DNA of 64,000 bases from Dehalococcoidia bacterium (GTDB lineage Bacteria > Chloroflexota > Dehalococcoidia > SM23-28-2 > RBG-16-64-32), in assembly GCA_963665775.2 (NCBI GenBank), contig CAXXTF010000002.1, forward strand, positions 736,001-800,000. Reading direction: 5' to 3'. The translations under genes were made by a program, and so were the position numbers. Below the pieces are notes generated by a model, which worked only from the letters and a program-made list of their open reading frames with translations, was not told the DNA's origin and made no database searches. The number at the start of each line of letters is the position of its first letter. Positions within the stretch are counted from its first letter, which is position 1. Shown here in pieces: positions 25,046 to 63,457 of this stretch.

Positions 25046-25797
25046 GAGGACGCCGCCCCTTCGGCTTCGCTCGCGACAGGCATCAGCCGAAAGAAGAACT
25101 CGCGGTTGCCGGCTGCCCCCAGAATGGGCGAGGACGTGAGCCCTCGGATGCGAAACCCATCCCCCGCACACCAGCCTACGAAGCGCCCGATAAGGGTAGC
25201 GTGCAGGAGTGGCTCCCGCACTATCCCTCCCCTGGACACTTCCCCCTTCTTGGCTTCAAACTGAGGCTTGAACAGGGCCACGATAGAACCCCCCGGGCTG
25301 AGCAGGCGCCGCACCACCGGCAGCACCAGCCGCAGCGAGATGAAGGAGACATCCACCGTGGCGATCTCCACGGGCTCCGCCAGCCCCTCCAGATAGCGCA
25401 CGTTCACCCGCTCCATGACGACGACTCGCGGCTCCTGTCGCAGGCGGTAAGCCAGCTGGCCGTGGCCCACGTCGATCGCGTACACGCGAGAGGCTCCGTG
25501 CTGAAGCAGGCAGTCGGTGAAGCCCCCGGTCGAGGCGCCGATATCGGCGACGACGACTCCCCTCACATCCAACTCGAAGGCGCGCAGGGCGTGCTCCAGT
25601 TTATCGCCGCCGCGGCCCACGTAACGCTGCCGCTCGGCTACCTCCAGAGAGGCCCCCTCATCGACGAGGGTAGCCGGCCTGACGACCTTCTGCGCCTCCA
25701 CAAGCACCGAGCCGGCCATGACCAGGGCTTTCGCCCGCTCCCGACTGTCCGCCAGCCCTCGCTCCAGAAGCAGCACATCCAACCTCTGCTTGCCCAT
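25042..25797 (-). CDS. tlyA: TlyA family rRNA 2'-O-methyltransferase
   Basis: RLDVLL S4 domain, DIGASTGGFTD, DVSFISL, KPQFE, GNREF. Confidence 0.95.
   Translation of the reverse strand: MGKQRLDVLLLERGLADSRERAKALVMAGSVLVEAQKVVRPATLVDEGASLEVAERQRYVGRGGDKLEHALRAFELDVRGVVVADIGASTGGFTDCLLQHGASRVYAIDVGHGQLAYRLRQEPRVVVMERVNVRYLEGLAEPVEIATVDVSFISLRLVLPVVRRLLSPGGSIVALFKPQFEAKKGEVSRGGIVREPLLHATLIGRFVGWCAGDGFRIRGLTSSPILGAAGNREFFFRLMPVASEAEGAASS
25057..25080 (-). repeat. Mini-hairpin repeat copy in the tlyA 3' end
   Basis: Minus strand CCTGTCGCGAGCGAAGCCGAAGGG, encoding PVASEAEG. Confidence 0.7.
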
Positions 25798-25894
25798 AAG
25801 CGAATCTCAGCATAGAAGCCGCCCACGCCTCAAGTCAACCGCAAAAGCAGACTGTGCTTCCCTCGGAGACCGGCAGAGGCCTGTCCATAGAAGT

Positions 25895-26572
25895 CTACAA
25901 ACGGCTTACTGACCGTCTCCGCCACCACAAGGCAGCGATGACGCCCACCGCTGCGCCTGCGGTGACCAGCGGCCACCAAGAGAAACCGCCGCCCCCGTTG
26001 GGAGGGCCGCCCGTTGGGGGTAAAGACCCCGGGGACGGCAAAACGAAGCTGGCCGGCACCTCTACGCAGGCCTCATTGGAGGGGGCAGAGAGACCGTCGG
26101 CGTTCCCCGCGAACACCTGGTAGCAGTAGAGACCCTGCGCGGGAAAGCCACGGTCAATGGTTCCCGTGGTGTCCGGCGGTGTAATTATCGCTACGGGGGC
26201 CGGGGATGGTGGTCCTTCGGGAGGAAATGTTTTCACGACACCGAAGCAAATCTCGTTGTCAGCGTTGTCCTGCCAGGTGAGTATGACCTCAAGCTCTTCG
26301 GCGTTCAGGCTGACCTCCAGGTCGGACGGCGAAGCGATCGTCGGAGTAGGGACATCGTCCGGAGGCCAAGGAACACCGCAGTTCTCAAGCAGTCCAGGCG
26401 GCGGCTCTGGCGGCAGCGGGTTCGGCGAAGGCGTTGCCGTGGACGCCGGTGGCGGGGTCGGCGCCGGTCCCTGACCATGTACGGCGGACGCCGCCGCGAG
26501 GGCCACCGCGGCAAGCGAGGCGACTGTCAGGATGGCGGCAAACCGCCGGTTCAACACGATTCTTGAGAACAC
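25895..26572 (-). CDS. Exported Pro-rich, FN3-like protein with LPXTG sorting signal
   Basis: Signal peptide, LTWQDNADNE...YCYQVFAGN..G.SAPSNE, then LPPTG + TM + RRR tail. Confidence 0.75.
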   Translation of the reverse strand: MFSRIVLNRRFAAILTVASLAAVALAAASAVHGQGPAPTPPPASTATPSPNPLPPEPPPGLLENCGVPWPPDDVPTPTIASPSDLEVSLNAEELEVILTWQDNADNEICFGVVKTFPPEGPPSPAPVAIITPPDTTGTIDRGFPAQGLYCYQVFAGNADGLSAPSNEACVEVPASFVLPSPGSLPPTGGPPNGGGGFSWWPLVTAGAAVGVIAALWWRRRSVSRL

Positions 26573-26602
26573 CCGGACCCCTTCAGTGCGCCGACGGTCG
26601 CC

Positions 26603-27904
26603 CTAAGCCGTCTCGCCCCTGGCCTCGCCCTCCCAGATCTCAACCGCCTGGCCGGTACGCGTAAGCAGCAGCGGCCGCCGTCGGCCTCGGATCGCCTCCG
26701 CGTCCACCACGCACTTCTTGATATCGCCCCGAGAAGGGATCTCGAACATCACGTCCAACAGGCAATCCTCAAGGACGGTACGCAGCCCGCGGGCGCCGGT
26801 CTTGTGCCCCAGCGCCTCCTCAGCGGCGGCATCTACAGCCTCATCCGTCAGCACCATCTCCACGCCGTCTATGGCGAAGAACTGCCGGAACTGTTTGACC
26901 AGCGCATTCTTCGGCTCGGTGAGGACGCGGATGAGCGCTTCCTTATCCAGCGACTGTAGCGACACCATGATGGGGATCCGGCCAACGAACTCAGGGATCA
27001 GGCCGTACTGAAGCAGATCGTCATGCATAACGTGGGCCAGGAGATCATCGGCGGTCTTGGCCGGGTCCCACTCACGCCGGGCCGCCGACCGGAACCCCAG
27101 GCCACGGGTACCCTTGCCGATTCGCTTGCCGACGATAGCGTCCAGCCCCTGGAAGGCGCCGCCGCAGACGAAGAGGATGTTTGCGGTGTTGATCTGGATG
27201 AAGTCCTGATGCGGATGCTTGCGCCCCCCCTGAGGCGGCACGTTAGCGACACAACCCTCGACGATCTTGAGAAGCGCCTGTTGCACACCCTCGCCGGAGA
27301 CATCACGGGTGATAGAGGGGTTCTCCCCGCTCTTCCGGCCTATCTTGTCGATCTCATCGATATAGATGATGCCTCGTTCCGCCCTCGCCACATCGAAATC
27401 AGCGGCCTGGATCAGGCGCAAGAGGATGTTCTCCACGTCCTCTCCCACATACCCGGCCTCCGTAAGTGCCGTCGCATCCGCGATGGTGAACGGCACATCC
27501 AGAATATTGGCCAGGGTGCGCGCCAGCAGGGTCTTCCCTGAACCCGGCGGGCCCAGGAGCAGGATGTTGCTCTTCTCTAGCTCAACCTCCTTCTTCCCCT
27601 GGACACCGATGCGCTTGTAATGGTTGTAGACGGCCACGGAGAGCACCTTCTTCGCCTGCTCCTGGCCCACCACATACTCGCTCAGCTGTTCGTAGATCGC
27701 CTTGGGCGGCGGCACCCGCTGGGGCCGCACCTTGGCCCGGCCGGCGGCTGAAGCGTCCTTCTGGACGATCTCGCGACACAGCTCCACACACTCGTCGCAG
27801 ATATAGACGGAGCCCGGCCCGGCGATAAGCCTGCGGACCTGGTCCTGGCTCTTGCTGCAGAACGAGCAGCTATGGGCTACGCGGCTGCTGCCTTTGGCCG
27901 GCAT
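26603..27904 (-). CDS. clpX: Clp protease ATPase ClpX
   Basis: CSFC Zn finger, [29 protein letters not shown]. Confidence 0.97.
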
Positions 27905-27908
27905 AGGC

Positions 27909-28541
27909 TCACTCCTTGGCCTTGTCCCCAGACCCCGCTGCCGCCGCCACCCTCGATCCCTGCAGAATCTCGTCGATTATGCCGTACTCCTTGGCGCCCG
28001 CGGCATCCAAGAAGAAGTCTCGGTCCGTGTCACGGGCTATGCGCTCCACCTCCTGGCCCGTGTGCTCAGCCAGGATACGCCGGATAACCTCGTTCCGCCG
28101 GATCACCTCCCGCGCATGGATCTCGATGTCTGACGCCTGACCGGTAGCCCCACCGCGAGCCTGGTGCATGTGAATCGTGGAGTTGGGCAGGGCATAGCGC
28201 TTCCCCTTGCTCCCCGCCGTGAGCAGCACCGTGGCCATACTGGCGCACTCGCCCACGCAGATCGTAGCTATGTCAGAGCGCAGCAACTGCATCGTATCGT
28301 AGATCGCCAGGCCGGCGCTTATCACTCCACCCGGCGAGTGGATGTACATGTTGATGTCCTTATCCGGCTCTTCCCGCTCCAGATAGAGGAGCTGGGCGAT
28401 GATCAGGTTGGCGATCTGGTCGTCTATAGGAGTCCCCAGAAAGATGATTCGCTCTTTGAGCAGCAGCGAGAAGATGTCGAACGACCGCTCCCCGCGCGGG
28501 CTCTGCTCAACCACGAACGGTACCATAAGCTCTGGCCTCAC
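27909..28541 (-). CDS. clpP: Clp protease proteolytic subunit
   Basis: [18 protein letters not shown] catalytic Ser, MHQ. Confidence 0.97.
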
Positions 28542-29905
28542 GATTGCGCCTCCGTTCCTGCCTTCGTTGAACGCTTCTTTCGCTTTGTGGTGGCCGTTTT
28601 CCTAGCCCCTTTGGCCGTTTTGGCGGCCCTCTTCGTCACCCCTTGCCCAGCTATCTCGACCAGCCGGTCGAGCGTCTTGCGAGTCACGAGGGAGCTCCCT
28701 ATCGCCTCCCGCGCCTCGGGGCCCGAGAACATCTGACGCACCGGCTCCGCCTGCGGGCCCGAGGAGCTGACCAGCTTCTCGACCTCCGCGTCTATCTCAG
28801 CTGGCTCCACCTTGACCTCCTCCACCTCGGCCAGGCGGCTAAGCGCCAGGGAGTTACGAACCTGCTCCAGGGCCAGAGGCCGCAACTCCTCCTGCAGCTC
28901 CGCCGGAGAGCGGCCGACCATCTGGAGGTACCGCTCCACATCCTGGCCAACGGCCCGCGCCTGCCCCTGTACAAGCCTCTCCATCTCCCGCTCCACCAGC
29001 AGAGCCGGGAACTCTAACTTCTCGGCCTGCTCCGTCAAGGCAGCGAGAGCTTTCTGCCGATACGCATCTTCCGCCTCCGCCTCCAATCGCTCCCGCCGGT
29101 TGCTATTCAGCCGTTCGCGCAGAGCATCGAGAGTGGCGAAGCCCTCGCCGACCTCGCGCGCAAACTGGTCATCTAGCTCCGACAGGCGCTCCTCCTTCAC
29201 CTCCTTCACGATGACGGTGAAGGTGCCGCTCTCGCCCGAGAAGGGCTGTGAGCCCGATGGCGGCGTCACCGGCACCTCCTTGGAGACACCCTTCTCGGCT
29301 CCCACCAACCCCTCCGCGAAGCCGGGAAGGAGGATCACGGAGCCTTCTCTAAGGTGAAACTCGGCGTCCTCCACGGCGTAGACCTCGCGCCCATCTATGA
29401 CACCCCTCACGTCGGCTCGGACGATGTCACCCATCCGTACCGGCCGCTCCGCCGGCTCATGAATGGCGTAGCGATGGCGCAGATCCTCCAGATCGGCGTC
29501 TACCTCCTTCGGATCGACGGACACGGCCTCCCGCTCCACCCTCAGGCTGTTGTAGTCCCCCAACTCCACCGTGGGGCGCACCGGCACCGTAGCCTTGAAA
29601 GAGAGCGGCTCCTCCTGGACCAGCTCGATCGCCGGCTGGCCGATAGGGTCAATCTCGTGCTCGTCTATAGCAAGGTTGTAAGCCTCTGGAATGAGGCTAT
29701 CCAGCGCCTCCTGAACCAGCCGCCCGCGCCCAACGTGACGCTCCAGCATATTCCTGGGCGTCTTCCCCTTTCGGAAGCCGGGCACTACCACCCGTTGGAC
29801 CAGCTTGCGATAGGCCCTCTCCAGCGAGCGCTCCATCTGCTCCGCCTCGACCTCGATCTCCAGGACGACCTGGCTCTCGGGGAGGCGCTCTGTGGAAACC
29901 TTCAC
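28538..29905 (-). CDS. tig: Trigger factor (start GTG 29905 or ATG 29908)
   Basis: [10 protein letters not shown] ribosome-binding motif; tig-clpP-clpX synteny. Confidence 0.93.
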
Positions 29906-29997
29906 CATCCAATTATAGCAGGGATGCCCGCCCAGACAGAAGGCGTCGCCTTCTCCCCTGTCAGAACCTCCCCGCGCGCTCCGGTAATCATGCCGGA

Positions 29998-31943: not shown

Positions 31944-31960
31944 TGACTCGTCCCTCCGGC

Positions 31961-33643: not shown

Positions 33644-33743
33644 ACTGCCTCTCTCTGGAGGGCGGGCGCGCTGGCGACACGCTTACCTAGCATCTTATCA
33701 GCGGCGAAACACCAGGTTCAAGCCACGAGCCACCGCTGGGCTA

Positions 33744-35638: not shown

Positions 35639-36883
35639 ATGAAGCCTGACCCCCTGAGCCTCTACCTCCACATCCCTTTCTGCTCCCTGAAGTGCCGCTA
35701 TTGCGACTTCAACGCCTACGCCGGGCTGGACAAGCTCGTGCCGCCTTACGTGGACGCCCTCATCGCCGAGATGGGGCTCTGGCGGCAGGCCGTCCGCGGG
35801 CGGCCCGTCCCTACCGTCTTCTTCGGCGGCGGCACCCCCAGCCTGCTGCCCCTTCCCGAACTCGAGCGCATCATCGCGGCCTTGCGAGACAGCTTCGACC
35901 TCGACCCGGAGGCGGAGCTGACCCTGGAAGCGAACCCCGGCACCGTCGACCTCCCCTACCTCCAGAGGCTGCTGAGCCTCGGTGTGAACCGCCTGAGCCT
36001 GGGCGTCCAGTCCTTCCACGACGACGAGCTGGCGGCCCTCGACCGCATCCACTCGGCCCAGGATGCGAAGGACGCCTATCTGTGGGCCCGCCAGGCCGGA
36101 TTCCACCGCCTCAGCCTCGACCTCATCTATGGCCTGTCCCAGCAGCCCCAGGAGCGCTGGCAGGCCACCCTGGAGCAGGCGATCGAACTGGCACCCGACC
36201 ACCTGTCGCTCTACGCCCTCACGGTAGAGGAGGGCACCGGGCTCGCCTACGACGTCGATCACGGCCGCGTGCCGTCGCCGGACGCCGATGCCCAGGCCTC
36301 CATGTACGAGTGGTCCGAGGAACGGCTGGCCCGAGCGGGCTACCGCCAGTACGAGATCTCCAACTGGGCGCGGCCCGTCCTGAGCGAAGCCTCTCCTGAG
36401 CGTAGTCGAAGGGCCGAAGGGCCGGGACAGGAGTGCCAACACAACCTCGTCTACTGGCGGAACGGCGACTGGCTGGGGCTGGGCGCCGGCGCCCACTCCC
36501 ACCTCGACGGCATCCGCTTCGCGGACGTGTACTCGCCCCGGCAGTATATACGTCGCCTGCAGCAGACCGCCGAGCGCGGCCTGCCCGAGGGCGGCGGCAC
36601 CTACGCCCTGCTGAAGGCGATGGGGCAGGTGACCTACCTGGAGGAGGGCTCGCCGGAGATGGCGATGGCGGATACCGCCATCCTGGCCCTCCGGCTGAAC
36701 GAAGGATTGAACCCAGCCCACTTCAGCGCTCGCTTCGGCCGGACTCTGGAAGAGGTGTACGGGCCGACTCTCGCCGAGCTGACCACCCTAGGGCTCATCG
36801 AGAGCACCGACTCTCGCCTCCGCCTGACCCCTCGCGGCCGCCTCCTGGCCAACGAGGTGTTCGTCTGCCTGCTACCGGACTAG
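35639..36883 (+). CDS. hemW: Radical SAM heme chaperone HemW with a 16-aa repeat-derived insert
   Basis: [35 protein letters not shown]. Confidence 0.92.
   Translation: [414 protein letters not shown]
36374..36421 (+). repeat. Two nested 24-bp mini-hairpin repeats, in frame in hemW
   Basis: CCCGTCCTGAGCGAAGCC[TCTCCTGAGCGTAGTCGAAGG]GCCGAAGGG. Confidence 0.85.
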
Positions 36884-42809: not shown

Positions 42810-44365
42810 CTACCTATCTCTCTCCGGTCGTCGGTCACACCTATCCCCTCACCATGCAGCGCCTTGCGCGCCAGCACCAGCGCCTCTTCTCGTGTCGTAA
42901 CCTCGCCGGCCGCCCCGGCCTCCCGGATCAGCTCCAGGAGCTCTCCCACCTGCGGCCCCGGCGACAACTCCAGTGCGGCCATCAACTCATCGCCCCGCAC
43001 CAGCTTCCGCGGGGCCAGCACGGCCTCCTCCTGGTACCGCTTCACGAGTATATAGTTTACCAGCGATACGTGTTGCCGCCAGCCCGACAGACTGACCCGC
43101 GGCCCTACCGTGCCCAGATGATCCGCCAGGGAGAGGAACAGGGTATCGATAGCCGCATCTCCACAGTCACGGAAGTAGCGATAAAGGGCCCTTCGCGTGG
43201 GCGCGCCCTGCTGGCCCATCTGCACGGGGCGCAGGTGGGCCTTGATCATCGTCTCAACCAGCTCCACCTCTCGCGCCGAGAAGTGCATCCGGCGCAGGAT
43301 GCGCGCCGCCTTCTCAGCTCCCAGGTCGGCGTGACCGAAGAAGCGCATCCGCCCCGTCTCATCGAAGCTCTTGGTATCGGGCTTCGCGATGTCATGCAGA
43401 AGGCCACCCAGCTTGACCACCGCCGAGCGTGGCGTTCCCGGCACTACCTCTTGGCGGAAGTGAGCACGGGCATCGCTCCACCAGGCCAGTTGACCCCAGA
43501 GCTCCCGCCACAGGTCAGGCCAGAGACTGCCCTGTGCCTGTCCAAGGGGCTGATCCGCGGCCTCCTCCTCGGCCAGCAGCACCTCCAGGTTGCGCACCGT
43601 CTCCAGGCTGTGGTTCAGAACATCCCAGTAGTGCTCCTTTGGCTGCTGCACCTCCCGAGTAGCCGCCAGCTCCGGCAACACCTGGTCCAGGAGGCCCAGC
43701 TCATCCAGGAGACGTACCCCCTCACCGGCCCGCCCTGACCCCATGATGCGCATCAGCTCATCCCGCTGTCGCTCCACGGCCACTGTCGGAACAAGAGAGG
43801 CGTACCGCCGGATCAGGTCAGCGGTGGCAGGCTCGATGTCGAAACCCATCTCGGCGGCCAGACGCACACCCCGTAGGGGCCGCAGAGGGTCCTGGCGGAA
43901 GCTCTCCTCACGAACCACCCGCACTAGCCGTCGGCGAATGTCCTGCCGCCCGCCTGTGGGATCGATGAGCTCCACGCTGCCGGACCACGCCTCCTCCAAG
44001 CGAGCCGCCATCGCATCGATCGTGTAGTCCCGCTGCCAGAGGTCCGCCCGGATGTCGCCGGCAAGAGGGAGCAGGTCTACGTGGAGCTGGCGGTCAGGGA
44101 GGACGACACGCGCCATATTCCGCCCCTCAGCCAGCGGGAAGTAGTGACCGCCGAACGCGTCGGCCAGCTCCCTGCCCACCTGGAGCGGATCCGCGCTCAC
44201 GGAGAGGTCGATATCGTGGCACTCGCGGTCCTGCAGGGCGTCGCGCAGGATACCTCCTACAGCATAGGTCTCGACGCCGCGGGCCGCGAAGAACGCGCCC
44301 AGCTCCGACAGAGTGTCCCGCAGCCTCCGCTCCAGGTGAAGCCTGGTTCGGTTCCCCACCGCCAT
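42806..44365 (-). CDS. CCA-adding/poly(A) polymerase family nucleotidyltransferase with HD domain
   Basis: VGGILRD, DIDL, RDYTIDAMA, DPLR, LLHDIAKP. Confidence 0.9.
   Translation of the reverse strand: MAVGNRTRLHLERRLRDTLSELGAFFAARGVETYAVGGILRDALQDRECHDIDLSVSADPLQVGRELADAFGGHYFPLAEGRNMARVVLPDRQLHVDLLPLAGDIRADLWQRDYTIDAMAARLEEAWSGSVELIDPTGGRQDIRRRLVRVVREESFRQDPLRPLRGVRLAAEMGFDIEPATADLIRRYASLVPTVAVERQRDELMRIMGSGRAGEGVRLLDELGLLDQVLPELAATREVQQPKEHYWDVLNHSLETVRNLEVLLAEEEAADQPLGQAQGSLWPDLWRELWGQLAWWSDARAHFRQEVVPGTPRSAVVKLGGLLHDIAKPDTKSFDETGRMRFFGHADLGAEKAARILRRMHFSAREVELVETMIKAHLRPVQMGQQGAPTRRALYRYFRDCGDAAIDTLFLSLADHLGTVGPRVSLSGWRQHVSLVNYILVKRYQEEAVLAPRKLVRGDELMAALELSPGPQVGELLELIREAGAAGEVTTREEALVLARKALHGEGIGVTDDRREIGR
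43527..43548 (+). repeat. Degenerate mini-hairpin repeat copy in the CCA/HD gene
   Basis: CTGCCCTGTGCCTGTCCAAGGG, two mismatches to CTGCCCTGAGCCTGTCGAAGGG. Confidence 0.6.
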
Positions 44366-44975: not shown

Positions 44976-47459
44976 TCACAGCAGCGAGATGGGATCCACA
45001 TCCAGCGTCCAGCCGCGGGGCAGGGGCAGATCCCACAGCAGGGCCGCCGGATCGTCGCCCCGAAGCACGATCTGCCACCGCCAGCGACCCCGCAACCGCG
45101 CCACGAAGGCCGGCGCCGGCCCCAGGATGTCCAGGTTCGGCAATCCCAGCCGATCCCGCTCTCCCTTCAGATGGCGGACCATGGCCGTCGCCTGCTCCTG
45201 CGAGTAGGCCGCGCCTGTGTGGGCGTAGACCAGACGGATCAACCGCCCGAAGGGGGGATATCCCAGCCGTCGCCGTAGCCTCACCTCTCGCTCGTACAGA
45301 GCCTGGAAATCGTGCGCCGCCGCCGCCACCACCGCGTAGTGGTCGGGGCTATAGCTCTGGATAATCACCCGTCCGCCCTTGGGCCCCCGTCCGGCGCGAC
45401 CGGCCACCTGCTCCAGAAGCTGGAACGTACGCTCGCCGGAGCGAAAGTCCGGGAAGTGGAGAGCGACATCTGCGGACACAATCCCCGCCAGGGTCACCAG
45501 GGGTATATCCAGCCCCTTAGCGATCATCTGCGTACCCACGAGGATATCCGCCTCCTGCGCCAGGAAGCGAGCCAGGATAGCCTCGTGCGAGTGCCGACCC
45601 CGAGTCACGTCCCGATCCCAGCGAAGGGTTCGCGCCCCCGGGAAGGCCCGTCGCGCCTCCTCCTCCACTCCCTCCGTCCCCAGCCCCAGCCTGCGGATGC
45701 GGCGACTGCCACAGCGGGCGCAGGCCTTAGGCGATGCGACTTGGCGGCGGCAGTAATGACATACCAGAGCGGCTTCCGAGGCGTGATACGTTAGCGACAC
45801 CGCACAGGATCGACACTGGGGAACCTCTCCGCAGTCACGACACTGAACGAAGGCGGCCGTCCCCCGCCGGTTCAGGAAGAGGATGACCTGCTCCCCCCTT
45901 GCCAGCGCCTGTTCCACGCCCCGGCTCAGGGCGCGGCTGAAGATGCTGCGGTTCCCCTCCTTCAGCTCCACGCGCAGATCGACTACCTCCACCTCCGGCA
46001 GCGGACTCGGCACTACGGAGCCATCCTCCAGCTGGTGCAGCCGCTGGGGCAGCTCCAGCAGCCGATAAGCGCCCTCCTCGGCACGGAAACGGCTCTCCAC
46101 GTCCGGCGTCGCCGAGCCCAGCACCAGGACGGCGCCCGACAGCCGACACAGCTCCTCGGCAGTGCGCCGGGCGTGATAGCGGGGAGAACCCTCCTGCTGC
46201 TTGTAGGACCACTCGTGCTCCTCATCGATGATCACCAGCCCCAGGTCCGGCTGAGGGGCGAAGAGGGCTCCCCGCGGCCCAATGACGACACCGTACCGAC
46301 CCTCCCGCACCTCGTGCCACATATCGAAGTGCTCCCCCAGCGAGAGGCCGCTGTGCATCACCGCCACCTGACCCGGAAACCGCTCGCCGAAGCGGCGAAC
46401 GGTCTGCGGTGTCAGCGATATCTCAGGCACCAGAACGATCGCCCGCCGGCCCAGCGCCAGCGCCCCCTCCAGGGCCGCCAGATACACCTCCGTCTTACCG
46501 CTTCCCGTAACCCCCTGCAGCAGGAAAGGGGGAGCGGGCGGGCCGGGTCCCGCCGCCTCCAGCGCCTTCACGACGGCCGAGGACGCCGATCCCTGGTCGT
46601 CCGTGAGCGCCGACGCCGGCCGCTGCCGGTAGACCCGGCCCGCCAGGGGATCGCGGATCACAGTGACATCCTCCACCACAGCCAGCCCTTCCCCTTCCAG
46701 ATCCCGCAGTACCGCCGCCGTGAGCCCCCGATCGCGCAGCCGCGCCAGGGGCAAGGAGCCCTCTTCGGCCAGAGCCTCCAGCACCGCCGCCCGGCGCCGG
46801 CGCCGCCCTGAGCCTGCCGAAGCGGCACCTGCTGAGCCATCCTGGCGCAGCCCGCTCGCCCGGGCCAGCGCCTCATCGGCGGCGACCAGCAGGCGCAGGT
46901 GGGGCACCACCTTAGGCCTCACCTGCGGCCGCGCCAGCCGATACGAGCGCTGGATCAAGCCTCGACGGAGGAGGGCGCCCACAAGGCTCGGCGTGTTGGT
47001 CAGCCCCAGCCCCCTCCGCAGCTCCTCCGCCTCGACCTCCCCGCGCTCGATAACGTAGGCCAGCACCCTCTGCTGTTTATCCGTAAGCGACAGCCGTGGC
47101 AGCTCCTCCAGAGAGGCCAGCGGACGTAGCAGAGCGAGAGGCCGGCGGTTGAATCCGGGCGGCAGAAAGAGAGAGACGCAGTCGAACAGGGGAGCCAGAT
47201 AGTGGTCACTGAGCCAACGAGCCACCTCCACCTGCGCCGGCGAAAGCATTGGCCTGGAATCGATGACGGCCTCGATCTCCCGGACCTCCACCAGCCCAGT
47301 CTCCGCCGCTAACTCCACCACCACGCCCTGAAGGGTGCGCCTCCCGAACGGGACGTACACGGCCTGCCCCGGCACCACGGACAGCCCATCCGGCACACCG
47401 TAGGTGAAGGTCTGACGCAGCGGCGCCGCAGCGTTGACGGCCACTTCAGCGTAAGGCAT
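44976..47459 (-). CDS. priA: Primosomal protein N' PriA
   Basis: GVTGSGKTEVY, DEEH, two Cys4 clusters, GTQMIAKG, QVAGRAGR. Confidence 0.97.
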   Translation of the reverse strand: MPYAEVAVNAAAPLRQTFTYGVPDGLSVVPGQAVYVPFGRRTLQGVVVELAAETGLVEVREIEAVIDSRPMLSPAQVEVARWLSDHYLAPLFDCVSLFLPPGFNRRPLALLRPLASLEELPRLSLTDKQQRVLAYVIERGEVEAEELRRGLGLTNTPSLVGALLRRGLIQRSYRLARPQVRPKVVPHLRLLVAADEALARASGLRQDGSAGAASAGSGRRRRRAAVLEALAEEGSLPLARLRDRGLTAAVLRDLEGEGLAVVEDVTVIRDPLAGRVYRQRPASALTDDQGSASSAVVKALEAAGPGPPAPPFLLQGVTGSGKTEVYLAALEGALALGRRAIVLVPEISLTPQTVRRFGERFPGQVAVMHSGLSLGEHFDMWHEVREGRYGVVIGPRGALFAPQPDLGLVIIDEEHEWSYKQQEGSPRYHARRTAEELCRLSGAVLVLGSATPDVESRFRAEEGAYRLLELPQRLHQLEDGSVVPSPLPEVEVVDLRVELKEGNRSIFSRALSRGVEQALARGEQVILFLNRRGTAAFVQCRDCGEVPQCRSCAVSLTYHASEAALVCHYCRRQVASPKACARCGSRRIRRLGLGTEGVEEEARRAFPGARTLRWDRDVTRGRHSHEAILARFLAQEADILVGTQMIAKGLDIPLVTLAGIVSADVALHFPDFRSGERTFQLLEQVAGRAGRGPKGGRVIIQSYSPDHYAVVAAAAHDFQALYEREVRLRRRLGYPPFGRLIRLVYAHTGAAYSQEQATAMVRHLKGERDRLGLPNLDILGPAPAFVARLRGRWRWQIVLRGDDPAALLWDLPLPRGWTLDVDPISLL
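46803..46825 (+). repeat. Mini-hairpin repeat copy in priA
   Basis: CCGCCCTGAGCCTGCCGAAGCGG. Confidence 0.65.
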
Positions 47460-54078: not shown

Positions 54079-54106
54079 GCGCTGCCGAAGCCAGTAAGCC
54101 CACGCG

Positions 54107-54210: not shown

Positions 54211-55728
54211 ATGGCGGGACAGGAAATCGAAGCTCCCACCGAGGGCGGGACCGCAACCCCCTCCACAAGTCCAGGGCAAGCCCTGGACTACATCTTCCAC
54301 CCCCGCTCTGTGGCCGTCGTCGGCGCCTCGCGCGCTCAGCCGGGCGGCCCCGCCACTAACTTCGTAGTGACCCTCAAGAAGATGGGCTGCCCCCTCATCT
54401 ACCCCGTCAACCCCAAATACCAGGAGCTCGACGGCCTCAAATGCTACCCCAGCCTCCAGAAGATCGAGGGTCCGGTAGACCACGTCATCTCCAGCGTGCC
54501 CGCTCACATCGTCCCCCAGCTCGTGGAGGACTCCATCGCCAAAGGGGTGAAGACCATCCATCTCTTCACCGCCGGCTTCAGCGAGACGGGCGAAGACGAG
54601 CGCGCGGCGCTGGAATCGCGGCTAGTCGCTCGCGCCAAAGAGGCGGGAATCCGGATCCTGGGACCCAATTGCATGGGCCTATACGTGCCCCAGTCGGGGC
54701 TCTCCTTCACCCTCGGTTTCCCCAAAGAGCCTGGCTCCGTCGGCCTCATTTCCCAGAGCGGTGGCAACGCCAGCGAAACGGTGATCAGCTCCGCCGTACG
54801 CGGCATTCGCTACTCCAAGGTGATAAGCTACGGCAACGCCGCCGACATCGATGAGAGCGAGCTGCTGGAGTACCTGGCCTGGGACCCGGAGACGGAGATC
54901 ATCGCCGCCTACATCGAGGGGGTCAGAGGCGGCCGCCGCTTCCTCCCCGCGATGCGCGCGGCGGCCGCGACCAAGCCTCTGCTGGTGCTGAAGGGCGGCC
55001 GCACGGAGACCGGCGCCCGCGCCGCCTACTCCCATACGGCCAGCCTCGCCGGCTCCATCCAAATATTCGACGCCCTCTGCCGGCAGGTCGGCGCCGTGCG
55101 CGCTGGCAGTGTGGAGGAGCTCGTGGATCTCATCGTGGCCTTCCGTTGCCTGGCCCTGTCCGCCGGCAGCCGCTGGCTCCCGGCGGGGCCCCGGGTGGCG
55201 GTGGTTGGCGCCGGCGGCGGCTCCAGCGTCTTCGCCGCCGATGAGATCGACGAGGCCGGCCTGCGTTGTCCCCCCCTGCCGGAGCGTACCCAGATCAGCC
55301 TAAGAGAGTTAATCCCCGTGGCCGGCACCAGCATTCGCAACCCGGTGGACGCCACATCCATCTCGGAGCCCTCCAACCTCGGGCAGATCATGCGGCTGGC
55401 GGGCCAGGCGGAGAACATAGACCTGGTCATCTATCACCTCAACATCGGCTGGGGCTGGAACCTCTCAGCCCGTAACACTACCGGCGGCGACCCCGACCAA
55501 CGGGCCCACCCGATGATGGACGCGATTCTGCGGGCGCGAGAGGCGATCGCCAAGCCGATAGTGGTAACGATACGCTCGCCCCTGGACGTTAGCGGCATGG
55601 AGCGAGCCCTCGCCTTTCAGGAGAACTGCTGGCGCGCCGACATCCCGGTCTTCCCCTCCCTGCCGCGAGCGGCCAACGCCGTCGCCAAGCTGCTACGCTG
55701 GCAGCAAGGTCGAATGGAGGTCGAGTAG
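54211..55728 (+). CDS. NDP-forming acyl-CoA synthetase alpha-type subunit (CoA-binding)
   Basis: PRSVAVVGAS, YPVNP, GPNCMG, SQSGG, SHTASLAG phospho-His, NPVD; no ATP-grasp domain. Confidence 0.88.
   Translation: MAGQEIEAPTEGGTATPSTSPGQALDYIFHPRSVAVVGASRAQPGGPATNFVVTLKKMGCPLIYPVNPKYQELDGLKCYPSLQKIEGPVDHVISSVPAHIVPQLVEDSIAKGVKTIHLFTAGFSETGEDERAALESRLVARAKEAGIRILGPNCMGLYVPQSGLSFTLGFPKEPGSVGLISQSGGNASETVISSAVRGIRYSKVISYGNAADIDESELLEYLAWDPETEIIAAYIEGVRGGRRFLPAMRAAAATKPLLVLKGGRTETGARAAYSHTASLAGSIQIFDALCRQVGAVRAGSVEELVDLIVAFRCLALSAGSRWLPAGPRVAVVGAGGGSSVFAADEIDEAGLRCPPLPERTQISLRELIPVAGTSIRNPVDATSISEPSNLGQIMRLAGQAENIDLVIYHLNIGWGWNLSARNTTGGDPDQRAHPMMDAILRAREAIAKPIVVTIRSPLDVSGMERALAFQENCWRADIPVFPSLPRAANAVAKLLRWQQGRMEVE
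54258..54284 (+). repeat. Diverged mini-hairpin repeat copy in the CoA-ligase N-terminus
   Basis: CCCCTCCACAAGTCCAGGGCAAGCCCT, encoding PSTSPGQA. Confidence 0.5.
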
Positions 55729-55871
55729 CGGGCAACCGGCCCGGCCGGGTATTGACTGCGCCCTGAACACCGGCAAACTAGTGGTTGGAGGTTGCCTGGC
55801 TAACGCGGGAGGTCCCAAACGTTGGCATCGGACTCTAGGGGGGCATCTCCCCTGAAAGGTGGCCGTTCGCT

Positions 55872-57422: not shown

Positions 57423-57456
57423 TCGCCCCACGACCCGACGGGAGGCGACCCGCAGG

Positions 57457-58536
57457 CTAGCGGCGAGCCCGGATGCGTCTCGCCAAGACGACTGAGCCGC
57501 CCACAAACCCCGCGGCGGCGGAGACTCCTACCACCAGCGCCGCGATCATCCCGGCACTCATGCCGTCGGCGGTTGCCGTCGTCGGCGTCACCGGCCCCTC
57601 TCGCTCATCCGATGAGGCCCCTGCCTCCATTACGGCCGTCGTCGGCGCCGCCGGCCCCTCTCGCCCATCCAATTAGGCTCCTGCCTCCGTTACGGCCGTC
57701 GTCGGCGCCGCCGGCCCCTCCAACCCCTCAGGCGAGGCCGCCGTCGCCAGCGCCTTCGAGATCACGCTATCGAGCCCCTCAGTCGTCGCGAAGTAGTAGG
57801 GCGTACGATCATCGCCCGCGTAACCACCGGACCAAAAGCGCCCCCTACGACCATCGGCCGGAGGAGTGTAGAATCCCAGCACGCCGCCGTAGCCGGTGCC
57901 GTTCACCTTGCCCTTCAAATTGATGGTGAGCGACCGCGACTCGTCCGTCGGCACCCGCGGCGAGCGGCTCACCGTCTCGATCAGCTGGCGCACGAACGCC
58001 TCGGCCTCCGCTCCGCTCAGCACCCCGCCGCCCGGCGATACGGTGTAGGTCATCTCGAACAGGTGCCTCGCCCGGAAGTCGGCGGCGATGGGACCGACTT
58101 CCAGTTGCCCCTTCGCTCCCAAGGCCAGAGCATCTTCGGTGGACGCGTCCAGGAACGCGGCCAATTCCAGCGATAGACTGAACCAGCGACCGGTCGAGCG
58201 CTCATGGATCATCTGGGCCTCAGGATAGTAACGCAGCTTCGGGCCGCCGTTAGCTAGCTGATAAGGCACGCTCAGAGTTCCCCCGGACTGGTACAGATCA
58301 TAGGCCAGGGACGGTAGCGGCTGCGGCGCGTCCACCTCTCGTGCATCAGAGCCCGGCAGCTCTTCTACCCATTCCCCACTCTCCGTGATGCCGTAGAACT
58401 GGTAGGCGTATGCGCCCAGCTCGCCGCCAGCAATGATGTAGCTGGGCGACTTGGCCACCGCGCTTCCGGCAGGCAGCGCCAGCAACGCGACCACCAGAGC
58501 GATCACAAACCGTCGCACGTTCATATTTCCATCCAC
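57457..58536 (-). pseudogene. Exported protein with repeat linker and C-terminal TM anchor, interrupted by in-frame TAA at 57673-57675
   Basis: ORFs 57673..58536 and 57457..57672 are contiguous and in the same frame; signal peptide at the start, TM + RRIRARR at the end. Confidence 0.65.
57575..57721. repeat. 60-bp tandem repeat, about 2.4 copies
   Basis: GCCGTCGTCGGCG..CCGGCCCCTC recurs at 60-bp spacing; encodes EGPAAPTTAVxEAGA. Confidence 0.9.
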
Positions 58537-58598
58537 GAAGCATTATACAGCGCCTGGCCAGCGCCGGTATCGCAGTGTCGGCGGTGAGAACGGCTCTT

Positions 58599-60314
58599 CT
58601 AGCGCCGCCCGAACTCCCGCGCCAGGAGTTCGCCGCTCATGTGGATCATCGTCGGACGGCCGTGTGGGCAGGTGTTCGGCGCCTCCGATCCCTCCAGCTG
58701 ACGCACCAGCTCCCGCATCTCCTCCACCGCCAGCGTCTTGCCGGCGCGCACGGCGCCGTGGCAGGCCAGCGACATCGCCACCCGATCCCGTCGATCCCCC
58801 TCCTCCTCTTCCAGCATCAGCTCCAGGAACTGGAGAACCGTCTGCCCGACATCTGCCGTGGCCAGCGAGCGCGGCAGCGAGCGCAGGAGATAGGCCCCGT
58901 CACCGAAAGGCTCGATCTCGAAGCCGTGCTCGCGCAGGGGCCCACCCTCTTCGGCCAGGAGCGCCCTCTGTCGGGGCGGCACCTCCACCGTCACTGGCTC
59001 CAGCAGCCCCTGCACCTCCGGTGCGCGATCTCGCCGGAGGCGGCAGAAACGCTCGTATAATACCCGCTCGTGGGCGGCATGCTGGTCGATGAGGTACATC
59101 CCGTCGGGCCCCTCCGCCACCACGTACGTCCCGCCGAACTGGCCGATGACCCGCAGCGCCGGCAGCGCCTGCGACGGCGTCGCCGCCGCCCGCTCCCCGC
59201 TCGCGACCCCCGGTTCCAGCCGCTCCTCCTGTCGCTGCCTGGCCCGCCGCCACAGGGGCAGCGTCGAAGCCTCTCCCCCCAGCGCCAGCGGTGACGCCCC
59301 ACCACCCATCGAAGCGCTGGGCACCGGCGACCCCGCCAGCAGGGCCTCCCGCACCACCCGCTGCAGGACAGCGAATATCGCTGACTCATCCCGAAAGCGA
59401 ACCTCAGCCTTCGTTGGGTGCACGTTGACGTCCACCTCCTCGTACGGCAGCCGCAGATCGAGAACGGCGACCGGATGGCGGCCCACCATCAGCAGCCCCT
59501 GGTACGCCTCCTCCACGGCGAAGGTCAGGCGACGGCTCTGCACCCAGCGTCGGTTCACGAACAGACTGACATAGCCGCCCCTGGCGCGGGAGACGTCGGG
59601 AGCGGCCGCCAACCCCTGGACCACGATCGGCCCCTCCCCGGACGAGACCGGGAGCATCGCCGCCGCCATATTCGCCCCGTAGACCGCGGCCACGGCGTCC
59701 GTTAGCTCCCCGCTGCCGGACGTGTTCAGCCCCTGCCGGCCGTCCAGCGATAGGCTGAAGCGCACCTCCGGGTAGGCCAGGGCGTAATGGCTGACCACGC
59801 CGCTCACGGCGTTGCCCTCGCTGCCGGGAGAGCGCAGGAACTTGCGGCGCGCGGGCTGCCGCGCGAAGAGACGGCGTACGCTGACCGACGTGCCCACGGG
59901 GGCGCCGCGGCTGCCCCCCTCCGGCGGCGCTTCCGGCCTCAGGCGCAGGTAGGCAGCGGCCTCCTCCCCTGAAGGCCGCGACACCATCTCCACTTCAGCC
60001 ACGGCGGCGATGCTCGGTAGCGCCTCGCCCCGAAAGCCCAGGGTCAGGATGCGAGAGAGGTCGGGGCTATCGTCCAGCTTGCTGGTGGCGTGGCGGGCGA
60101 AGGCCAGCTCCAGATCGTCCGCCGCGATGCCACAGCCGTCGTCCGTGACCCGGATCGATTCCAGGCCGCCGCCTTTGACCTCCACCGCGATGCGGGAGGC
60201 GCCAGCGTCCAGCGCGTTCTCCACCAGCTCCTTGACCACAGAGGCCGGCCGCTCCACCACCTCACCGGCGGCGATGCGGGCGGCGACCTCGGGCAGCAGT
60301 ACGCGGATAGTCAA
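58599..60314 (-). CDS. mutL: DNA mismatch repair endonuclease MutL
   Basis: IAAGEVVERP, GFRGEAL, DQHAAHERVLYE, ACH, CPHGRP. Confidence 0.97.
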   Translation of the reverse strand: MTIRVLLPEVAARIAAGEVVERPASVVKELVENALDAGASRIAVEVKGGGLESIRVTDDGCGIAADDLELAFARHATSKLDDSPDLSRILTLGFRGEALPSIAAVAEVEMVSRPSGEEAAAYLRLRPEAPPEGGSRGAPVGTSVSVRRLFARQPARRKFLRSPGSEGNAVSGVVSHYALAYPEVRFSLSLDGRQGLNTSGSGELTDAVAAVYGANMAAAMLPVSSGEGPIVVQGLAAAPDVSRARGGYVSLFVNRRWVQSRRLTFAVEEAYQGLLMVGRHPVAVLDLRLPYEEVDVNVHPTKAEVRFRDESAIFAVLQRVVREALLAGSPVPSASMGGGASPLALGGEASTLPLWRRARQRQEERLEPGVASGERAAATPSQALPALRVIGQFGGTYVVAEGPDGMYLIDQHAAHERVLYERFCRLRRDRAPEVQGLLEPVTVEVPPRQRALLAEEGGPLREHGFEIEPFGDGAYLLRSLPRSLATADVGQTVLQFLELMLEEEEGDRRDRVAMSLACHGAVRAGKTLAVEEMRELVRQLEGSEAPNTCPHGRPTMIHMSGELLAREFGRR

Positions 60315-60379
60315 GCGGATGCTCCTGGCAGCGATTGTAGCACAGACGTTCAGACAGGGAAACGATAGCCGGAGTGCGG

Positions 60380-60802
60380 TCAGGCCTTATCTTCCGCCGA
60401 TTCCCGCAGAATCACCACGGGGATATCTCGCTTGCTGCGCCTCGCGTACCCCTCATAGGCGGGGAACATCGCCACAAACCGGGGCCACAGGCGGGCCTTC
60501 TCCTCCGGACCCGCCTCTCGCGCCACCACCGATAACGTCCGGCGCCTCACCCGCACCCTGGCCCGCCGATCGCCCTTCAGGTTCAGCCACCACATGGGAT
60601 GGCGATCGCTGCCGGCATTGGACGCGGCAACCGCCAGGCTTTCGCCATCGGCTACGTACATGAGCGGCTTCGTCCGCGCCCTGCCGCTCCTCCGGCCGGT
60701 CGTGGTCAGAAGGAGGATCGGCGCCTTGCCGTACCTCCCGCCCAGGAACCCCCCACTTAGCCGGTACAGGAAGGCGTGAAGGGCGGGAAAGAGCCTCTGC
60801 AA
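60380..60802 (-). CDS. F420-dependent nitroreductase/quinone reductase (Ddn family)
   Basis: LLLTTTGRRSG..RTKPL, ASNAG..HPMWWLNL, RDIPVVIL. Confidence 0.88.
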   Translation of the reverse strand: MQRLFPALHAFLYRLSGGFLGGRYGKAPILLLTTTGRRSGRARTKPLMYVADGESLAVAASNAGSDRHPMWWLNLKGDRRARVRVRRRTLSVVAREAGPEEKARLWPRFVAMFPAYEGYARRSKRDIPVVILRESAEDKA

Positions 60803-60835
60803 CAGCCGGTTATCGATCGGCGGTGGCCCCCGTGC

Positions 60836-63457
60836 CTACGTTCCACTCTTCCGCGCCCGCTCCGCCAGCTCGTACAGCTTTGTGATCGCCTGCAGCGGCG
60901 TCAGCGAATCCACTTCCAGCTCCGCCAGCTCTCGCGCCAGGACGCCGTCCGCTGCGAACAGGGGGAGCTGCGGCGCCTCCTCTCGCCGACGTCGTGACGC
61001 TGGCGGTGCGCGCCGGTCGGCGGCGGCCTCTAGCTCCTCCAGAAGCTCCTGGGCGCGCAGCACGACCGCCCGCGGCAGGCCGGCCAACTGCGCCACGTGC
61101 ACCCCATAGGAGCGATTGGCGCCGCCCGGGAGGATCCGGTGCAGGAAGACGACCCGGCCCTCCTCCTCCGCCACCGCCACGTTGAAGTTGCGCACCCGGG
61201 GCAGAAACGCGGCCATCGCCACCAGCTCGTGGTAGTGGGTAGCGAACAGCGTCTTCGCCGCCGCCTCCGGCCGGCCGTGGATGAACTCCACCACCGCCCG
61301 CGCGATCGCCATCCCGTCGTAGGTGCTCGTCCCCCGGCCGATCTCGTCGAACAGGAGCAGAGAGCGCGGCGAAGCGCCGTGCAGGATCGCCGCCGTCTCC
61401 AGCATCTCCACCATGAAGGTGGAATGGCCGGCGCCGATGTCATCCAGGGCTCCCAGCCGGCTGAATATCCGGTCCACCAGACCGATGCGTGCCTCGGCCG
61501 CGGGGACGAACGAGCCGACCTGGGCCAACAGAACGACGAGGGCTACCTGGCGCAGGTAGGTGGACTTACCGGCCATGTTGGGGCCGGTAAGGACGATGAT
61601 CTGCGCCTCGCCGCCCGACATCTGCACGTCGTTAGGCACGAACGAGCCCTCGGCCAACATCCGCTCCACCACTGGGTGACGCCCGTCGCGGATCACGATC
61701 TCGTCGCCGTCATCGACGCTGGGACGCACGTAGCCGTAGCGGGCGGCCGCCTCCGCCAGACCGCAGTACACATCGACGACAGCCACCACGGCAGCGGTCT
61801 CCAGGATGCGCCGCCCCTGGGCGGCTACCTGAGCGCAGACCTGACGCAGCAGATTCTGCTCCAGCTCCTGCTGGCGCTCCTGAGCATGCAGGACGCGGAA
61901 CTCGTACTCCTGGAGCTCTGCCAGCGTGAAGCGCTCCCCGCCCACCAGGGTCTGGCGGCGCTGATAATCCGACGGCACGTGCTCCAGGTTCGCCTTCGAC
62001 ACCTCGACGTAGTAACCGAACACCCTGTTGTAACCCACCTTGAGGTTCCTGATACCCGTGCGCTCCCGCTCCCGCCGCTCCAGGTCGGCCAGGTAGCGGC
62101 GGGCATCGCGAGCCGTGGCCCGCAGCCCGTCCAGCTCCTCCGAGAAGCCCGCTCGGATGACCGCCCCCTGCTGCGGGTCGTCGGCGATGGCCCGCGCGAT
62201 GAGATCCGCCGCCTCCCGACAAGGGTGCAGGCCCAATGTCAGCTCCTCGTAGACCGCCTGTTTCCCTCCCAGCGAGGCCGGGTCATGGTCCAGCGCCTCC
62301 CGCAGGGACGGCACGATCTCCAGACCCCGGCGCAGGGCCACCAGATCGCGGGGAACGCTCGCGGCCCCAGCGGCCGCTGCGGCGGCAGAGATGCGCGCCA
62401 GCACCCGCTCCAGATCGGGAATCTTGGCCAGCAGGGCCGCACAGAGACCGCGCCGCACCGCCGAATCGAAGAAAAGCTGCACCCCATCCTGACGCTGACC
62501 TATCGCTGTTATGTCAAGCAGGGGCTGGCCCAGCCACCTCCGCAGGAGGCGCACGCCCATCGGCGTCCTGGTCTGATCCAGTACGGAGAACAGGGAGATC
62601 GCCTCCCCGTCCGACCGCAGTGTCTGAAACAGCTCCAGATTCCGCCGGGTGTTGACGTCCAGCGCCATGAATCCCCCCGCCTGGTAGGGCGAGAGGCGAG
62701 AGATATGGCCCAGGACGGCCCGCTGGCTCTCCTGAAGATAGGCCAGGACGGCACCGGCGGCCCTCGCCGCCAGGGTCAGGCCGGCCAAACCCAACCCCTC
62801 CAGCGACGGCGTCCCGAAGTGCTCCAGAAGGCGCTGAACCGCCCCCTCCGACTCGAAGCTGTCATTGGAGAGAGGGGTCACGCTGGCCGTGACCCCAGCC
62901 GGCGAAGAACCCCCCTCTGGCAGCAACAGCTCAGCGGGGCGCAGCCGCTCCAGTTCGGCGGCCACAGCGTCGGTATCAACCTGGGTACAGGCGAACTCGC
63001 CGGTCGACACGTCCACGTGGGCCAGGCCGGCTTGGCCGTCGCCCGGGAGAACGGCGACCAGGTAGTTGTTGGTGCCGCGGCTCAGGAGGTTCTCCTCAAC
63101 CAACGTGCCCGGGGTCACCACCCGCACCACCTGGCGATCCACCAGCTTCTTCCCCTGGCCCGGCTCACCTGCCCTGAGCGCAGTCGAAGGCTCCATCTGC
63201 TCGCAGATCGCCACCTTGTACCCCTTGCCGATGAGCCGGGCCAGGTACGAGTCCAGAGCGTGATAGGGGATGCCCGCCAGCGGCACCCGCTGTCCCTTCC
63301 CCACCGGCCGCGAGGTAAGGGTGATCTCCAGCTCCCGGGCTATGGTTTCGGCGTCCTCGTCGAACGTCTCGTAGAAATCGCCCAGCCGAAAGAACAGGAT
63401 GGCATGGGGATAGCGCCGCTTCATATCCAGATACTGGCGGCGTAGAGGCGTGGTCAC
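60836..63457 (-). CDS. mutS: DNA mismatch repair protein MutS
   Basis: FFRLGDFYETF, TGPNMAGKST, STFMVEM, DEIGRGT, ATHYHEL. Confidence 0.97.
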   Translation of the reverse strand: MTTPLRRQYLDMKRRYPHAILFFRLGDFYETFDEDAETIARELEITLTSRPVGKGQRVPLAGIPYHALDSYLARLIGKGYKVAICEQMEPSTALRAGEPGQGKKLVDRQVVRVVTPGTLVEENLLSRGTNNYLVAVLPGDGQAGLAHVDVSTGEFACTQVDTDAVAAELERLRPAELLLPEGGSSPAGVTASVTPLSNDSFESEGAVQRLLEHFGTPSLEGLGLAGLTLAARAAGAVLAYLQESQRAVLGHISRLSPYQAGGFMALDVNTRRNLELFQTLRSDGEAISLFSVLDQTRTPMGVRLLRRWLGQPLLDITAIGQRQDGVQLFFDSAVRRGLCAALLAKIPDLERVLARISAAAAAAGAASVPRDLVALRRGLEIVPSLREALDHDPASLGGKQAVYEELTLGLHPCREAADLIARAIADDPQQGAVIRAGFSEELDGLRATARDARRYLADLERRERERTGIRNLKVGYNRVFGYYVEVSKANLEHVPSDYQRRQTLVGGERFTLAELQEYEFRVLHAQERQQELEQNLLRQVCAQVAAQGRRILETAAVVAVVDVYCGLAEAAARYGYVRPSVDDGDEIVIRDGRHPVVERMLAEGSFVPNDVQMSGGEAQIIVLTGPNMAGKSTYLRQVALVVLLAQVGSFVPAAEARIGLVDRIFSRLGALDDIGAGHSTFMVEMLETAAILHGASPRSLLLFDEIGRGTSTYDGMAIARAVVEFIHGRPEAAAKTLFATHYHELVAMAAFLPRVRNFNVAVAEEEGRVVFLHRILPGGANRSYGVHVAQLAGLPRAVVLRAQELLEELEAAADRRAPPASRRRREEAPQLPLFAADGVLARELAELEVDSLTPLQAITKLYELAERARKSGT
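63167..63190 (+). repeat. 24-bp mini-hairpin repeat in frame in mutS
   Basis: ACCTGCCCTGAGCGCAGTCGAAGG; adds PSTALRAG on the coding strand. Confidence 0.8.

Follow-up and report, generated by a model that had tools for sequence, protein, structure and literature searches.

A 24-nucleotide hairpin repeat inserted in frame in genes of a Dehalococcoidia bacterium and its probable link with a small GIY-YIG nuclease

The DNA considered here is a window of 64,000 nucleotides (nt) from a Dehalococcoidia bacterium (G000:C2:736001–800000; genome G000 is 2.35 Mb in two contigs, 63% G+C), and the question it raises is why a short hairpin-like sequence, with the core CCTGAGC-N2-3-GYCGAAGG, recurs within its housekeeping genes. 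An initial annotation had listed eight sites and proposed a minimal mobile element spread by an enzyme encoded elsewhere. The repeat family is real, and its best explanation, which we consider probable, is that it is the non-autonomous hairpin repeat of an Ssn-like nuclease/repeat system, copies of which are translated in tolerant loops of the host proteins. In the available text of PMC11893778 (Chenal et al. 2025), SsnA of Neisseria meningitidis is a 94-amino-acid (aa) single-domain GIY-YIG protein which cuts single-stranded DNA (ssDNA) just upstream of the NTS hairpin repeat.

Two exact cores lie in the window, at 36395 (hemW) and 63173 (mutS), where dinucleotide shuffles expect 0.00; the whole genome has 25 (20 on the plus and 5 on the minus strand), with no match to the reversed pattern or controls. 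A slightly looser pattern gave 30 exact copies in the genome versus none for two decoy patterns. Since plain mismatch searches of the window (11 matches versus 9.05 expected, and 18 versus 8.6) fail to part degenerate sites from chance, a position weight matrix (PWM) with flanks was used instead; it includes seven conserved upstream bases and was trained on 30 genome copies, which score high by construction. This matrix gave 46 hits at ≥18 bits in the genome versus none in the reversed genome, 57 versus 4 at ≥16 bits and 64 versus 10 at ≥14 bits. Every one of the six window hits at ≥14 bits is a site named in that annotation; together with the outer of two hemW units, which the matrix leaves unscored because a nested insertion splits it, seven of the eight sites are supported. 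The eighth, at 54258 in a CoA-ligase gene, is not supported as a copy, since it scores below 14 bits and the N-terminus differs from the G016 orthologue by a single one-residue gap. An Rfam scan of the window at gathering thresholds gave no match. The copies are:

25055..25081, minus strand: degenerate copy forming the last codons (VASEAEG...) of a TlyA-like methyltransferase open reading frame (ORF); PWM 21.8 bits
36373..36388, plus strand: left part (16 nt) of the outer 24-nt hemW unit, split by the nested inner unit; from the excision test
36389..36412, plus strand: inner 24-nt hemW unit, read SPERSRR, next to the loop of the outer unit; exact core; PWM 35.0 bits
36413..36420, plus strand: right part (8 nt) of the outer hemW unit; from the excision test
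43526..43549, plus strand: degenerate 24-nt unit in the CCA-adding/HD enzyme gene, antisense to the gene, read PLGQAQGS; PWM 18.4 bits (hit at 43525)
46801..46826, plus strand: degenerate unit in priA, antisense to the gene, read ASAGSGRR; PWM 17.6 bits
52907..52932, minus strand: degenerate copy, intergenic or ambiguous by a crude two-flank coding test; PWM 19.3 bits
63167..63190, plus strand: 24-nt unit in mutS domain I, antisense to the gene, read PSTALRAG; exact core; PWM 28.8 bits

Pfam agrees with the gene names given earlier to the window hosts, the TlyA-like ORF for example possessing S4 and FtsJ domains. The proposal that the units had been inserted was upheld when the host genes were aligned with their orthologues: these have clean empty sites, shorter by exactly 8 or 16 codons, which marks the units as insertions. 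MutS of G000 reads ...CEQME-PSTALRAG-EPGQGKK..., and the insertion is missing in 25 of 27 orthologous or paralogous hits, these being 5–10 residues shorter and mostly exactly 8. In the closest orthologues nothing separates the two Glu codons, so that the ends of this insertion (63167–63190) are unambiguous and no target bases are duplicated. A miniature inverted-repeat transposable element (70–300 bp, with insertion sequence [IS] terminal inverted repeats and a target-site duplication) was rejected on that ground and on the 24-nt length of the unit. MutS of G027 and of G023, which belong to one genus, has this loop occupied by insertions of its own from the same family, the copy in G027 lying in the opposite direction and reading GPVLSLSKG.

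HemW has 48 extra bases, equal to two 24-nt units and reading VLSEASPERSRRAEGP in G000, between the conserved flanks ...EISNWARP and GQEC..., and an exact 16-residue gap is present in all 21 orthologous hits (21 related genomes). Excision of 36389–36412 gives back one perfect unit, so that the inner unit was inserted beside the outer unit's loop, the unit boundaries having an ambiguity of up to 4 nt. The hemW site is 48 nt shorter in contigs of related organisms from four public runs and carries the insertion in the strain's own contigs; all four runs covering the window are contigs, blind to rare within-strain alleles, and the small-share marine runs serve only as a source of related contigs. 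The gene for the CCA-adding/HD enzyme is longer by 24 bp (an exact 8-codon gap in four of five close relatives and a 6-codon gap in the fifth), as is priA (an exact 8-codon gap in five of five), which extends to two further genes the claim that the added length is a multiple of 24 bp in hemW (48) and mutS (24). At the 3' end of the TlyA-like gene the element is found also in G002 (DLSEVEG) and G017 (ALSGVEG), of another genus, and the G016 orthologue stops earlier and lacks it; being common to two genomes of another genus and missing in G016, this copy is older. The degenerate copies in the window carry one or two changes in the core. It had been stated that the units have no gene of their own, add 8-residue stretches to proteins and lie in both orientations and several frames with the host frame unbroken, all of which was confirmed.

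In G015, G005, G029 and G018 (L010, L008, L020 and L015), HemW is also interrupted in frame at a second site, after ...GAHSH(L/V/W), by other insertions, for example GRKEEGGRGKEGVTY and GWKEEGGRRKEY; from their sequences these look like members of a different repeat family.

Across the genome, a coding-signal test on both flanks placed at least 19 of the 46 copies within genes, 12 antisense and 7 sense; this home-made codon-usage test is crude and needs coding signal on both flanks, and several copies that it left ambiguous also lie within long ORFs, the five tandem dnaX units described below being among these. Among the hosts recognised by Pfam are a class I tRNA synthetase, alanyl-tRNA synthetase (AlaRS), the RNA polymerase beta' subunit, the glycine-cleavage P protein, a UvrD-like helicase, a MgsA/RarA-like ATPase, CofD, a FAD-binding (NadB/Sdh-like) enzyme, ornithine/aspartate carbamoyltransferase and others. 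Antisense copies read mostly PSTGSG, and the other frames are LSLSKG/LSEAEG, PEPVEG/PERSRR, FDKLR and LRQAQ; one sense frame has a TGA and is never used. The class I tRNA synthetase shows an 8-codon gap in G018, and that of G017 has a PSTGSGQ unit which its congener G002 lacks. Stacks of units are found in the FAD-binding enzyme of G016 and G017, that of G002 or G018 having none, and AlaRS is variable among relatives in like manner. Judged from these alignments, the same protein loops are hit independently and repeatedly in other lineages.

Could such a pattern result from chance, base composition or convergent selection for a Gly/Ser/Pro linker peptide? The mismatch counts in the window, near shuffle expectation, and the linker-like antisense reading PSTGSG point in that direction. 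The same DNA, however, is read in at least five frames and lies also between genes, the insertions are exact 24-nt blocks, and controls gave 0 versus 25–46 real copies, which leaves this explanation with a negligible probability and effectively refutes it.

Three further observations concern the copies in G000. Firstly, a strand bias is present, with 32 plus versus 14 minus among PWM hits at ≥18 bits and 20 versus 5 among exact cores; most other genomes are balanced, and G011 is also skewed (68:38). One possible source of the bias in G000 is a preference for copies antisense to genes; the GC skew of this genome revealed no clear origin or terminus to which copy orientation could be related as replication direction. 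Secondly, one copy lies within an IS3-family (rve) transposase ORF in two IS copies (L294 ~1596–1621, G000:C1:295995; and G000:C2:107299), and other partial copies of that IS stop before the hairpin unit. Thirdly, two identical 34-nt copies lie inverted and 11 kb apart, at G000:C2:1342082 (L295 ~1081–1160) and 1353252 (L296 ~1200–1281), each followed by a second hairpin subtype (ATTCTGAG...).

The 24-nt unit consists of a conserved 7–8-nt 5' tail (NCCTGYC-like) and then a stem-loop, and 30 copies share bases of the GCCTGYC or CGCTCRYC type upstream of the core. The stem has two to three covarying outer pairs and an invariant TGAGC...GYCGAA core, which could form U/T-A, G.A, A.G and G-C pairs; the loop sequence is either GNA or YYG. 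Covariation was studied in 135 copies from the genome and all fetched loci with the inner core TGAGC-N2-4-YCGAA held fixed, some of these being chance matches. The three outer pairs were paired in 91, 96 and 92 of the copies, the shuffle means being 73.6, 67.3 and 75.3 and the maxima 87, 81 and 88; covariation at pairs 4 and 5 was not significant in the same 135 copies. C-G is swapped to G-C in 10 and 21 copies, and the third pair alternates between C-G, T-A and T-G. In the 3' copy at the nuclease gene described below CC...GG is swapped to GG...CC, and some relatives have an outer stem of GC...GC or GTGG...CCAC. Since stem positions covary and swap, a folded strand is under selection. We infer that the active or conserved form is ssDNA; the data do not part ssDNA from RNA, and the presence of copies in either orientation to the host gene argues against a consistent role as RNA.

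Which enzyme might act on such a strand? GIY-YIG matches in the genome are two, a 622-aa UvrC-like ORF and one small gene located outside the window at G000:C2:1387001–1387294. The 98-aa product of the latter, P0003, matches Pfam GIY-YIG over residues 3–74 (E = 2e-18) with no other domain and keeps the conserved Tyr, Tyr, Gly, Arg and His columns; it also matches the UPF0213 structure 1zg2 (E = 1.2e-18), and NCBIfam has no family for it. The gene is preceded, at a distance of 23 nt, by an exact core; at its other end the last codons (...HGSTGSP*) overlap with an inverted copy of degenerate sequence, and this tail is kept in related genomes. Four exact cores, including that at the nuclease gene, lie within ~8 kb (1386963 to 1394798). 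A candidate enzyme is thus encoded elsewhere, as the initial annotation had proposed, and is of a type (GIY-YIG) named there; its gene, the sole small GIY-YIG gene of the genome, is bracketed by hairpins and lies in a local cluster of copies.

The P0003 cassette lies 13 codons into a mutS2-like gene (L030), the 5' end of which is repeated directly over 38 bp after the cassette, restoring the ORF (L030 1407–1444 and 1836–1873). A duplication of 38 bp is unusually long for an insertion footprint. The cassette has the same layout, just upstream of mutS2, in G012, G002 and G023; in the other 16 genomes with a mutS2 match no cassette was found in the fetched locus, two of these loci starting within the gene with the upstream part unseen. 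A hairpin-bracketed layout is present also in L033, L036, L037, L276, L278 and L286. Landing of the cassette in the loop of one hairpin was considered and ruled out, as both ends are complete hairpins. From its sequence the P0003 cassette looks like a miniature insertion sequence.

The association of repeat and nuclease was followed in other genomes. Among 30 homologue loci from a phylum-wide sample, all seven with ≥57% identity have the motif within ~320 nt. The remaining 23 have no exact core, three of them showing only degenerate pattern matches within 400 nt; some carry long-loop versions of the core or other hairpins, one of which resembles the Neisseria NTS and has tandem G.A pairs. A search for exact inverted repeats around distant homologues was mostly empty. 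In a sample of 201 genomes of the phylum, a homologue (E ≤ 0.001) was found in 29 of the 36 genomes with at least five copies versus 27 of the 165 others, and among 31 close relatives, counting G000, repeat and gene occur together in 23 and are both missing in 5 (all of family f2), the motif occurs without the gene in 3 and the gene without the motif in none; these counts are uncorrected for kinship and overstate independence. Close homologues of the nuclease in G209, G191 and G182 (L034, L035 and L044) lie within arrays of a longer hairpin relative, in which an outer stem GTGG...CCAC encloses the TGAGC...GTCGAA core and a loop of ~20 nt.

The exact core is present in 65 of the 201 genomes sampled from its own phylum, with up to 189 copies each and controls near 0, and in 40 of 81 genomes of a second phylum (around G237, Nitrospirae bacterium), with up to 70 copies each and two control hits in total. 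Single metagenome-assembled genomes (MAGs) of other groups had five copies (Verrucomicrobia), one (Peribacteria) or none (Planctomycetaceae and Gemmatimonadetes). Copy number is patchy, ranging from 3 to 107 among neighbours in the family-f1 sample, and the core is absent from all five genomes of family f2. The exact Neisseria NTS consensus, among the matches listed (L143–L222), occurs in many phyla, including several Dehalococcoidia, Chloroflexia and Thermoflexales MAGs.

A core almost invariant across two phyla might also be kept by the host, as a recognition mark modulating ssDNA uptake or recombination (as proposed for NTS and SsnA) or as an RNA-level signal. The Neisseria repeat/nuclease pair does modulate natural transformation (PMC11893778, available text), and several of the host genes, namely mutS, priA, uvrD-like, dnaX, rarA-like and mutS2, serve DNA replication or repair. 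Against a host function stand the patchy distribution just described, the lack of a consistent RNA from copies lying in either orientation to the host gene, and the position of copies in variable loops together with their decay, which fit neutral or slightly harmful passengers; we regard such a function as quite improbable.

If the repeat belongs, as we favour, to an Ssn-like system, solitary units would be made or spread in trans by the GIY-YIG nuclease acting on ssDNA; the enzyme would cut at the hairpin and cause spread, and units that kept the reading frame and fell in a tolerant surface loop or at the end of a gene would survive and be translated as 8 residues. That the nuclease moves the units is inferred from its co-occurrence with them. 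Several points weigh against this explanation. The co-occurrence is confounded by shared ancestry; moreover, a query with P0003 found no homologue in 7 of the 36 motif-rich genomes of the phylum sample and in 3 of the 26 relatives, counting G000, that bear the motif. No experiment or within-strain polymorphism shows movement, the hemW insertion being present in the strain's own contigs, and the insertions are undatable, the nearest relatives belonging to different genera. The unusual hairpin stability asserted in the initial annotation was not supported: nearest-neighbour DNA folding of seven window sites gave z-scores of −0.21 to +1.08, that is, no excess stability, with parameters ill suited to sheared G.A pairs and GNA loops.

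The remaining points concern the resemblance to Ssn. The published degenerate pattern for Ssn-related motifs (SRM) gave 24 hits on the genome versus 17 when reversed, with no overlaps with the present copies. P0003 shows 25% identity over 87 residues (38.9 bits, E = 2e-10) to P0004, a small GIY-YIG ORF of N. lactamica presumed to be the SsnA orthologue, being the only such ORF found there by the P0003 query and not checked against CAX49033.1. In the available text of PMC11893778 an Ssn protein is recognised by a BLAST E < 1e-10 with at least 75% cover to N. meningitidis SsnA, or by cd10448 as top CDD hit; the P0003–P0004 score, a pairwise E only, would probably miss 1e-10 proteome-wide. Both proteins match the UPF0213 structures 1zg2 and 1ywl. 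A role of Ssn in transposition is, in the same text, only raised by its authors and not shown.

The repeat could have spread by another route, such as a Y1/HUH transposase, replication slippage or templated repair at hairpins, with the GIY-YIG cassette merely carrying or seeking hairpins as landing sites or ends. The motif-rich genomes without a homologue by the P0003 query (G053, G066, G120, G125, G128, G192 and G200; also G022, G025 and G029) would be explained in this way, and in dnaX, 2.2 kb past the end of the window (L099 1531–1653; G000:C2:802230–802352), five tandem 24-bp units reading (PSVGSGEA)x5 show local amplification by slippage with a period of 24, which needs no transposase. 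A weak match to Y1_Tnp (20.8 bits) at C2:1417671 also lends it some weight; that match is partial, however, and no PWM hit at ≥14 bits lies within 20 kb of it. Furthermore, the cassette has a whole hairpin at either end and not half of one, so that simple landing in a hairpin loop is ruled out, and nuclease subclades carry different hairpin variants, as cognate pairs would. On balance another route of spread is unlikely, though it deserves more weight than a host function. The Y1_Tnp (IS200-type) match (L273, G000:C2:1417671–1417847) lies in a 285-aa frame.

The preferred explanation, of an Ssn-like nuclease with its hairpin repeat, can be taken further. The GIY-YIG cassette with its hairpin ends may represent an unrecognised class of transposon in which a GIY-YIG ssDNA nuclease serves as transposase, and its solitary 24-nt hairpins would then be the smallest known mobile DNA, crossing phyla via ssDNA and repeatedly remodelling the same surface loops of replication and repair proteins. 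This extension is put forward tentatively, and we would lean against it at present. Should the nuclease indeed move the units, enzymes of the Ssn type would be more than site-specific nucleases: they would drive a widespread class of very small mobile DNA, and the clean insertions of 24 nt, whose empty sites are known, would offer a concrete substrate and footprint for studying its movement. The 8 or 16 residues added to MutS, PriA and HemW can mislead alignments, annotation and structure prediction, and as the published SRM pattern misses the present core, the reach of Ssn-type systems is probably underestimated.

How does the family compare with known systems? A literature search did not find the core described, nor GIY-YIG-linked hairpins inserted in frame, the supplements of PMC11893778 and PMC3733652, which may hold related motifs, lying outside this search. 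The suggestion that similar repeats might already be catalogued was right in kind, in that Ssn-related motifs and CGTC repeats are on record. To the d(GCGNAGC) mini-hairpins, as the available text of PMC13037366 presents them, the likeness is partial. Copies that have a GNA loop and then GCC, the outer hemW unit being one, contain the tested motif (GCGNAGC or GCGNNAGC); GTC copies read GCGNAGT, the YYG-loop subtype is without GCGNAGC, and folding showed no excess stability.

REP/RAYT elements (IS200/IS605-type Y1) are likewise short hairpins thought to move as ssDNA, and their enzyme gene is flanked by the repeats. A REP/RAYT or HUH partner was nevertheless rejected, since the consensus has no GTAG, the sole Y1_Tnp match is weak and not motif-flanked, and the partner here is of the GIY-YIG type. 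Rickettsia palindromic elements (RPE) of the RPE-1 type measure ~100–150 bp, several times the present unit. They resemble it in being selfish palindromic DNA lying in frame in housekeeping genes and translated, and they differ in that no nuclease partner for RPE is shown in the available passages of PMC3733652 (Di Nocera et al. 2013).

Those passages catalogue hairpin repeats tagged with CGTC or GTAG, dRS3, RPE-4 and RPE-6 being of the CGTC type; both types lie also within genes, including DNA repair genes, and no transposase was found for the CGTC type. As described there, CGTC repeats share with the present family a short stem-loop, a conserved 5' tag and an in-frame position within genes, and their tag varies (TGTC, CCTC) like the YGYC here. 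They have 8–9-bp perfect stems beginning A-T, 4–5-nt loops and a CCA tail and are mostly dimers, whereas in the present family part of the "tag" is itself paired and units are single, nested or tandem. Membership of the CGTC-tagged superfamily was rejected, as two of the YGYC-like bases pair with the 3' side, there are no leading A-T pairs, the loop is of 3 or 5 nt and the CCA tail is missing.

The closest likeness is to the Ssn system as the available text of PMC11893778 presents it. There, ssnA genes are commonly flanked by repeats (SRM), an arrangement likened to an insertion sequence with mobility not shown. Both systems have a single-domain GIY-YIG protein of ~95 aa, encoded between inverted hairpin repeats, and a repeat dispersed in tens to hundreds of copies, the hairpin of which is made directional by a conserved, unpaired 5' flank; both are patchy across phyla, with some repeat-rich genomes lacking the gene. 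They differ in the core sequence, in the two G.A mismatches of the present stem, in length (24 nt here versus ~28–30) and in position, at least 19 of 46 copies being intragenic here whereas NTS lie within genes in only 2% of cases. By this comparison the present family is probably a variant of the Ssn-type nuclease/hairpin kind, a pairing first described in 2025, within which its 24-nt quantum, G.A-containing core, high in-frame share and reach across phyla are notable.

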